Shown here piece after piece: positions 26,116 to 26,209 of a stretch of 64,000 nucleotides of DNA. The notes under the pieces were generated by a model. That model worked only from the letters and a program-made list of their open reading frames with translations. It searched no databases and was not told where the DNA came from. Source of the stretch: an uncultured archaeon (GTDB lineage: Archaea > Thermoplasmatota > Penumbrarchaeia > JASLWR01); NCBI GenBank assembly GCA_964342815.1, contig CAYFHS010000005.1:88513-152512 (forward strand), in the 5' to 3' direction. Made by a program: the position numbers and the translations under genes. Within the stretch, counting starts at the first letter, position 1. Each line of letters opens with the position of its first letter.

Positions 26116-26209
26116 TATTGTCAATGGTGAAAGGCTCGACAAAAAGTCGAGGTTTGCAGCTTGGCAATGTTCGCGGAATCGCGGATCGAAGGGCCGATTC
26201 CGCTGAATC
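26116..26209. ncRNA. Minimal (~95 nt) homolog of the 24111-24420 element, in the HDAC gene leader
   Basis: Shares ordered blocks TATTGYCAA, TCGAC-N5-GTCGAGG, TTTGCA, TTGRCAAT, TTCGC, GAATCGC, GGGCCGAT and GCTGAATC with 24126-24364. Confidence 0.6.

Follow-up and report, generated by a model that had tools for sequence, protein, structure and literature searches.

A probably mobile, transposase-free DNA repeat of two hairpins in the leader of a histone-deacetylase-family gene of an uncultured marine Thermoplasmatota archaeon

The stretch of DNA that we analysed (the window, 64,000 nt in all) carries a gene of the histone-deacetylase family (HDAC), preceded by a TATA-like box and by a Shine-Dalgarno (SD) sequence, AGGTGA (26227-26232), ahead of its ATG at 26238. 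About 20 nt downstream of the TATA-like box lies a short structured element, the 26-kb copy, whose body of 90 nt is one nucleotide shorter than the consensus of 91, and in the same window lies a larger element, the 24-kb copy, with the same core (Table 1). The original prediction had treated the two as versions of one core RNA motif, riboswitch- or ribozyme-like, with an optional large domain, or else as MITE-like elements. Its description of the anatomy proved largely accurate: every shared block that it listed is present and in the order given, the minimal copy does lie between the TATA-like box and the SD/ATG of the HDAC gene, and a MAFFT alignment of the two elements opens a single gap of ~150 nt at the point where GTCGAGG of the 26-kb copy was said to join TTTGCA directly. 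The shared core is also far above chance. A covariance model (R1), built from 13 copies from the same and other genomes, matches the 26-kb copy at 104 bits (E 9e-25, 64-kb window searched), and the folds have z-scores of -3.5 for the 26-kb copy (two hairpins, MFE -40.2 kcal/mol) and -6.3 for the 24-kb composite (MFE -118 kcal/mol). The covariation claimed for the 3' stem held for one pair (A-T vs G-C), but the 24-kb copy also has one A.C mismatch there. Rfam 15 gave nothing on either element in 23900-26500, at the gathering threshold or at E up to 10, and its matches in the window were to tRNA only.

Table 1. Features of the two window copies and of the HDAC gene downstream of the minimal one.
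Feature	Position	Strand	Basis
Enlarged family copy, 5' dinucleotide mutated to GT	24125..24363	+	Alignment and R1
Accessory material: hairpin GGCCTTTCGAG/CTCGAAAGGAC enclosing a further module, plus GATGCATC hairpin	24163..24311	+	
Innermost 95-nt module, absent in G001 "variant B" copies	24182..24276	+	
TATA-like box of the HDAC gene	26090..26101	+	Kept in G001
5' AT dinucleotide (target copy)	26115..26116	+	Single in the empty G001 site
Hairpin domain 1: outer stem ATATTGTC/GGCAATGT, inner hairpin TCGAC-N5-GTCGA	26115..26170	+	MFE and consensus fold
Minimal element body, ATTGTC...GCTGA	26117..26206	+	Missing at the syntenic G001 locus; R1 match 104 bits
Hairpin domain 2: TCGCGGAATCG...CGATTCCGC(T)GA, T bulged	26171..26206	+	MFE and consensus fold
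3' AT dinucleotide: second target AT or the element's own end	26207..26208	+	Filled/empty comparisons; RelE insertion 93 nt = 91 + 2
Histone-deacetylase-family gene, downstream of the insertion	26238..27245	+	Pfam PF00850, E 1.6e-89

The two elements are not the special pair that had been proposed; both are members of a dispersed family, with ~50 loci found by BLAST and nhmmer in the window's own genome (G000; 116 contigs, 4.35 Mb). In an alignment of 15 full copies the limits are sharp, ATATTGTC...GCTGAAT, the flanks beyond them are unrelated, and the copies have no terminal inverted repeats: the 5' end, ATTGTCAATGG, is unrelated to the reverse complement of the 3' end, TCAGCGGAATCG. Simple copies measure 76-104 nt, and many copies of the family lie at contig ends. 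The covariance-model search across genomes that had been put forward as a check gave 47 matches in G000, 65 in a genome of the same genus (G001), 68 in one of the same family (G003) and 45 in one of another family of the class (G005), with 1-10 copies in each of seven further genomes of the class; it gave none in the sister genus (G002, 91% complete) and none in 24 genomes of other classes. Within G000 the pairwise identity of copies has a median of 74% and a maximum of 93%, and judged by this divergence the copies are old, with no sign of a recent burst. Among public genomes an exact 21-mer of the core is all but limited to two Thermoplasmatota MAGs, ETNP2_MAG_1 and SRP077602_co2_347, and one contig binned as Omnitrophota (L128, JABMSC010000134.1). 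On this 4.1-kb contig lies a full copy (96.6 bits); the contig aligns with G000 C2:245001-246705 at 84% identity, G000 being without a copy at the matching site, and is almost certainly a mis-binned piece of a related Thermoplasmatota archaeon. Three bacterial MAGs have a single 21-mer match each, about what chance would give, and the one match in a viral collection, inside a phage coding region, was likewise put down to chance.

Filled and empty sites provide the evidence of movement. The syntenic region of G001 is 80-83% identical to the window and retains all the flanking genes, with the SD and ATG of the HDAC gene, but has no counterpart of the 26-kb element: contig C69 of G001 reads GGTTATT-AT-ACTTCG where the window reads GGTTATT-AT-[26117-26206]-AT-CCTTCC. 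Since the G001 site is empty, the insertion at the HDAC gene arose after the G000 lineage had split from this congener. When the flanks of 20 G001 copies were compared with the whole G000 genome, eight had an alignable G000 site without the element. Three of these are exact cases of X-AT-[unit]-AT-Y against X-AT-Y (L086, L089 and L100), three have a diverged dinucleotide (L092, L096 and L098), one is displaced by substitutions (L082), and the alignment of the last (L094) gives no clear junction; seven filled/empty pairs beyond the HDAC site fit the AT pattern, three of them exactly. A copy on contig C4 of G000 even sits inside the ORF of a RelE/ParE-like toxin, which reads through it, and the homologues in G003 and G010 are continuous and without exactly residues 45-75, that is 93 nt (91 + AT), so that G003 has ELKDDPYR for ELND-[31 aa]-DPYR in G000. 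That ORF occupies G000 C4:128950-129345 (L004:1376-1771), its 93-nt copy being antisense and its additional 31 residues falling at profile position ~41/42. Other sites are occupied in both congeners, for example G000 C2:73297 and G001:C65:12154, and because such orthologous copies are shared the family must predate the G000/G001 split and have been active later in both lineages.

The target-site comparison gave AT at both sides of the filled sites and one AT in the empty ones. A true 2-bp duplication and a 2-nt crossover or end sequence would look alike in such data, and the one AT kept in empty sites fits the rule "insert after AT, end in AT" as well as it fits duplication. The flanks have a preference of their own (n = 43): at position -1 G (22/43) far outnumbers C (1/43), at position +1 C (20/43) is common and G (0/43) missing, and the logo of the insertion target is palindromic, D-AT-H. 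These empty sites, together with the AT at both junctions, back the mobile, MITE-like alternative that the original prediction had set beside its RNA reading.

The two abutting hairpins reach both ends of the unit. We counted the fold on 40 copies from nine genomes and the mis-binned contig, in an alignment fitted to the model and hence favouring structure, and the margins are large: 94.7% of cells pair, compared with 86.1% in shuffles and 30-42% with partners slid, and 22 of 31 pairs have changes on both sides, compared with 9.4 +/- 1.5 in shuffles. Such double changes fall in both hairpins (15/20 pairs of domain 1 and 7/11 of domain 2). The 5' AT pairs with an internal GT (26169-26170 in the 26-kb copy) and so closes hairpin 1, as A-U and U-G in 36-37 of the 40 copies. 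Hairpin 2 starts at the base after this GT and ends two bases before the 3' AT, with which the GT could pair equally well, and the neighbouring pair 74-182 covaries (UA 29, GC 7). In 40 of 43 copies the element's own strand forms a more stable fold than the complementary strand does (means -40.8 and -33.6 kcal/mol, RNA parameters), and DNA parameters give the same direction; the copies being related, this asymmetry is descriptive and not a strict test.

Is the 26-kb copy, then, a riboswitch-like leader of the HDAC gene, and the 24-kb copy a variant with an extra domain? Its stable fold and its position between the TATA-like box and the SD are what such a leader would have. However, the HDAC ortholog of G001 keeps both promoter and SD without the element, at the other ~50 loci the adjacent genes are unrelated and either orientation occurs, no Rfam family corresponds to it, and in a model of the 151-nt HDAC leader the element folds independently, with the SD/AUG region outside its helices. 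The tabulation of downstream genes that had been proposed showed no riboswitch-like pattern and no preferred gene: the neighbours are unrelated, the only recurrent ones being PKD/Ig surface-protein paralogs, which are common in G000. Nor is there an orientation bias, since copies between tandem genes share the direction of the genes in 14 cases and oppose it in 13 (crude gene calls). We therefore consider the riboswitch- or ribozyme-like reading very improbable. Copies in G000 lie between divergent genes in 12 cases and between convergent genes in two (crude ORF calls), an excess that suggests a preference for AT-rich promoter regions. At the HDAC gene the insertion would lie near the expected transcript start, as placed by the usual archaeal spacing from TATA box to start, and its most likely effect is simply to lengthen the 5' leader by a stable pair of hairpins that fold by themselves, without forming a switch. 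RNA-library contigs over the 26-kb copy or the HDAC gene were not found, which is informative in neither direction.

A subtler possibility is that the copies are now structured RNAs or DNA sites that the host has domesticated and keeps under selection, mobility being only their origin; the roles considered were transcript stabilisers, protein-binding sites and small RNA genes. Strong covariation and a strand-specific fold would be expected of such sequences, and so would the best-conserved copy of the family, at G000 C2:73297-73391 and G001:C65:12154-12248 (L002, L051), which is identical at 93 of 95 positions (98%) within an 849-nt block that is 79% identical. This copy is the closest to the family consensus in both genomes, and it may be a surviving source copy or be under selection; it is flanked by a HIT hydrolase gene and by an ORF with a weak likeness to TraB, and not by recombinase genes. 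Exact matches of RNA-library contigs to the 24-kb composite point the same way, though they do not show the strand and may stem from DNA carry-over. Against domestication stand the lack of orientation bias relative to transcription, the frequent presence/absence polymorphism between congeners, the copy inside a toxin ORF and the decay of copies by internal deletion, as in the G001 copy reduced to domain 2, and a surviving source copy would explain a single well-conserved ortholog equally well. We think domestication improbable as an account of the family.

In the enlarged 24-kb copy R1 finds the two halves of the unit in order and on the right strand (24125-24218, E 0.014; 24310-24363, E 6e-4). 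At the corresponding locus G001 has domain 2 only, directly after TATATT. The idea of a core with an optional large domain survives in part: the structured core is conserved and many members do have large additions, but these are layered hairpin modules and not one domain. Both small hairpins of the 24-kb accessory stretch occur on their own in four G001 copies ("variant B"), and most of the innermost module recurs, at 95% identity, inside another enlarged G001 copy. Part of that inner module is without its pairing partner, which is present in larger copies; modules are therefore deleted as well as added. Eighteen enlarged copies span 139-456 nt, with additions in domain 1 (inside the inner hairpin's loop or directly behind that hairpin), between the domains or, most commonly, in the apical loop of domain 2, and the differences between orthologous copies of G000 and G001 involve entire modules. 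Many of the added modules are GTAGG...GARGG hairpins, of which G000 has 131 against 42 in a shuffled genome, only 15 of them near this family; they are apparently members of a broader repeat system, whose hairpins also occupy loops in enlarged copies. Counts of single modules by blastn-short were too insensitive to bear on whether modules move alone.

Two RNA-library contigs match the 24-kb composite exactly (X13, 23974-24246; X15, 24256-24415). They fit a long minus-strand leader of a TPR gene running through the composite; contigs, however, reveal neither the strand nor the ends of a transcript, and carried-over DNA is a possible source. To the right of the composite, noncoding positions 24365-24496 are 93% identical to G001, as against 80-83% for the flanking coding sequence, and contain two small hairpins and a strong TATA-like run near 24440-24470, one of the RNA-library contigs ending at 24415. 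This stretch may serve the TPR gene (minus strand, 23072-24106) as promoter and leader, or it may be the 3' end of a CNNM/CBS gene.

We conclude, at a probability of roughly 0.8, that the 26-kb element is a copy of a small mobile DNA repeat without a transposase of its own, present in a few related marine Thermoplasmatota. The unit entered at an AT between the HDAC promoter and the ribosome-binding site after the split from the congener, converting a single AT into AT-[~91 nt]-AT. Compensatory changes have kept the two abutting hairpins on one strand, and this strand-specific fold would be the feature that the mobilising enzyme recognises. The AT at both ends would come from a staggered cut or crossover spanning 2 bp of duplex DNA, or else from a cleavage site of 2 nt read on folded single-stranded DNA. 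The larger copies, that at 24 kb among them, are the same ~91-nt unit with hairpin modules gained or lost in its loops and in the junction between the hairpins. The repeat is, in short, selfish DNA of an undescribed family, closest to PATE- or REP-type elements, and not a cis-regulatory RNA. What speaks against a mobile repeat is that there is no autonomous copy, that no transposase tracks it and that the copies are old and without a recent burst; a decaying parasite, moreover, would not predict a 93/95-identical ortholog in a 79% block.

Which enzyme could have moved the repeat? No family copy was found to contain an ORF, and a search pairing 5' and 3' ends within 8 kb returned no autonomous copy, the largest span being 411 nt in the automated search and 456 nt when ends were paired by hand, and a less strict motif scan produced nothing but noise. 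Among the genomes that carry the repeat, Y1_Tnp (PF01797) matched in G001 and G003 only, and it matched in non-carriers too; none was found in G000 or G005, incomplete MAGs that often lose IS copies, with at least 45 copies of the repeat each. The Y1 genes of G001 and G003 (within L110, G001:C65:1476-4838, and L113, G003:C1:7684-11043) are stand-alone, IS200-like and 155-163 aa long, and the noncoding stretch after that of G001 has CCGTAG...GCGAAG, which resembles the GTAGG modules. R1 found no family copy beside these Y1 genes or beside the resolvase genes. The serine recombinases matching PF00239 are either resolvase-type, with an N-terminal catalytic domain, or shared with the element-free G002, and that on G000 C76, examined as a candidate, is an ordinary resolvase with HTH_7. 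None of the PF00239 matches is a TnpA of the IS607 type, with an N-terminal DNA-binding domain, in MAGs that often lose IS copies, and TnpB (PF07282) was absent from the archaeal family f1, whose genomes are incomplete MAGs. IS110 (PF01548) was present in G000 only among carriers, and IS630 (PF13358) in G003, G005 and G009 and in two non-carriers. On these profile matches no transposase family appears to track the repeat, a weak test since MAGs often lose IS copies. A comparison of internal sequence with flanks, following the idea of a "guide", gave no signal (longest shared words 5.95, against 5.77 +/- 0.12 for mismatched pairs), and a search for tandem end-to-start junctions used criteria too permissive to tell anything.

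Two routes fit the anatomy about equally: 1. movement as folded single-stranded DNA by an HUH-type enzyme and 2. exchange over 2 bp of duplex DNA. Under the first, a PATE/REP-like unit would be moved by an HUH (Y1) transposase, inserting 3' of an AT and ending in AT, with both sites read by pairing with the internal GT. The absence of inverted terminal repeats and the hairpins reaching both ends agree with this, and PATEs are defined by these traits (PMC3119063). The strand-specific fold with its G.T pairs, the capacity of the internal GT to pair with either AT, next to a covarying pair, and the presence of Y1 transposases in G001 and G003 agree with it as well. On the other side, no Y1 gene was found in G000 or G005 despite their many copies, those of G001 and G003 are without a flanking family copy, and the target is palindromic around the AT, which a 5'-only single-strand rule does not predict. 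Known IS200/IS605 targets are moreover 4-5 nt long, compared with 2 here. We regard this route as possible if doubtful.

Under the second, the enzyme that moves the unit would act on duplex DNA, with an exchange or stagger of 2 bp. Candidates are a serine transposase of the IS607 kind that uses AT where IS607 uses GG, or a DDE enzyme whose insertions duplicate 2 bp. The same dinucleotide at both junctions, present once in empty sites, and the palindromic flank preference are what it predicts, and IS607 itself is without inverted repeats, with GG ends, a GG target and a 2-bp exchange (PMC6188088). Yet no TnpA of that type was found, the PF00239 matches being resolvase-type or shared with G002; DDE enzymes need inverted terminal repeats, which are absent here; and a duplex route leaves the better folding of one strand unexplained. 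Our confidence in this route is equally limited.

Among known systems the repeat most resembles the PATEs, palindrome-associated transposable elements of Haloquadratum walsbyi with SMR-A repeats inserting into their palindromes (PMC3119063). Like them it is too short for a transposase, has no inverted terminal repeats and has palindromes at or near both ends, with many diverged copies, strain- or species-specific insertions, small repeats inside hairpins and frequent internal deletions. PATEs, however, share their ends with IS605-type (TnpB/TnpA) transposons of the same genome, and we found no such partner here; PATEs are also without target duplication, whereas AT stands at both junctions here, and they have a host of another phylum and no sequence similarity. 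The REP, BIME and REPIN elements of bacteria, which go with RAYT (Y1 HUH) transposases (PMC2817692), are likewise abundant, structured extragenic repeats that function in one strand and form composite mosaics, and the GTAGG...GARGG hairpins of our added modules recall the REP GTAG tag. Our 91-nt core nevertheless is without a GTAG tag and consists of two hairpins, where a REP has one short GC-rich palindrome, and we found no RAYT-like gene flanked by copies. Like IS607, the repeat is without inverted terminal repeats, has one dinucleotide common to its two ends and its target, and shows little further target specificity (PMC6188088). It differs in having AT for GG, in being 91 nt of noncoding DNA and in that no IS607-type TnpA or TnpB was detected. 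The Correia/NEMIS and ERIC elements and the Rickettsia palindromic elements have terminal inverted repeats and duplicate TA. They resemble our repeat in length (~100-150 nt), in their 2-bp duplication, in having long and short variants, in forming hairpins when transcribed and in occasional in-frame insertion; ours, in contrast, is an archaeal repeat without terminal inverted repeats and flanked by AT. These bacterial TA-duplicating MITEs and the Rickettsia elements have been reviewed (PMC3184786). Measured against classical MITEs, our repeat is short, noncoding, present in many copies and flanked by a target-site AT, and it has no terminal inverted repeats matching a resident transposon.

Could it be a new kind of archaeal element altogether? 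We have in mind a two-hairpin unit without terminal inverted repeats, whose folded strand would present its AT junctions to the internal GT as a "reader" and whose mobilising enzyme would be none of the known Y1, serine, DDE or TnpB partners; at least some copies would persist intact in place, as long-lived sources or through selection in the host, and modules would accrete in the loops by the same or a sister mechanism. We offer this as a rather unlikely proposal.

The main interest of the repeat lies in its mode of movement. A false lead has been removed, there being neither a new riboswitch nor a new ribozyme at 26 kb, and in its place stand base-exact filled and empty sites for an abundant structured repeat of uncultured marine Thermoplasmatota with no known transposase partner. 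The rule of AT at both ends, the lack of inverted repeats and the strand-specific, covarying fold make it a clean case for the movement of transposase-free archaeal repeats. It matters for the annotation of MAGs too, as a repeat that breaks assemblies at contig ends, reshapes 5' leaders (HDAC) and can sit in-frame (RelE). One further copy, at G000 C42:19805-19896, lies between genes that by sequence motifs only are those of an anaerobic ribonucleotide reductase and its radical-SAM activase.
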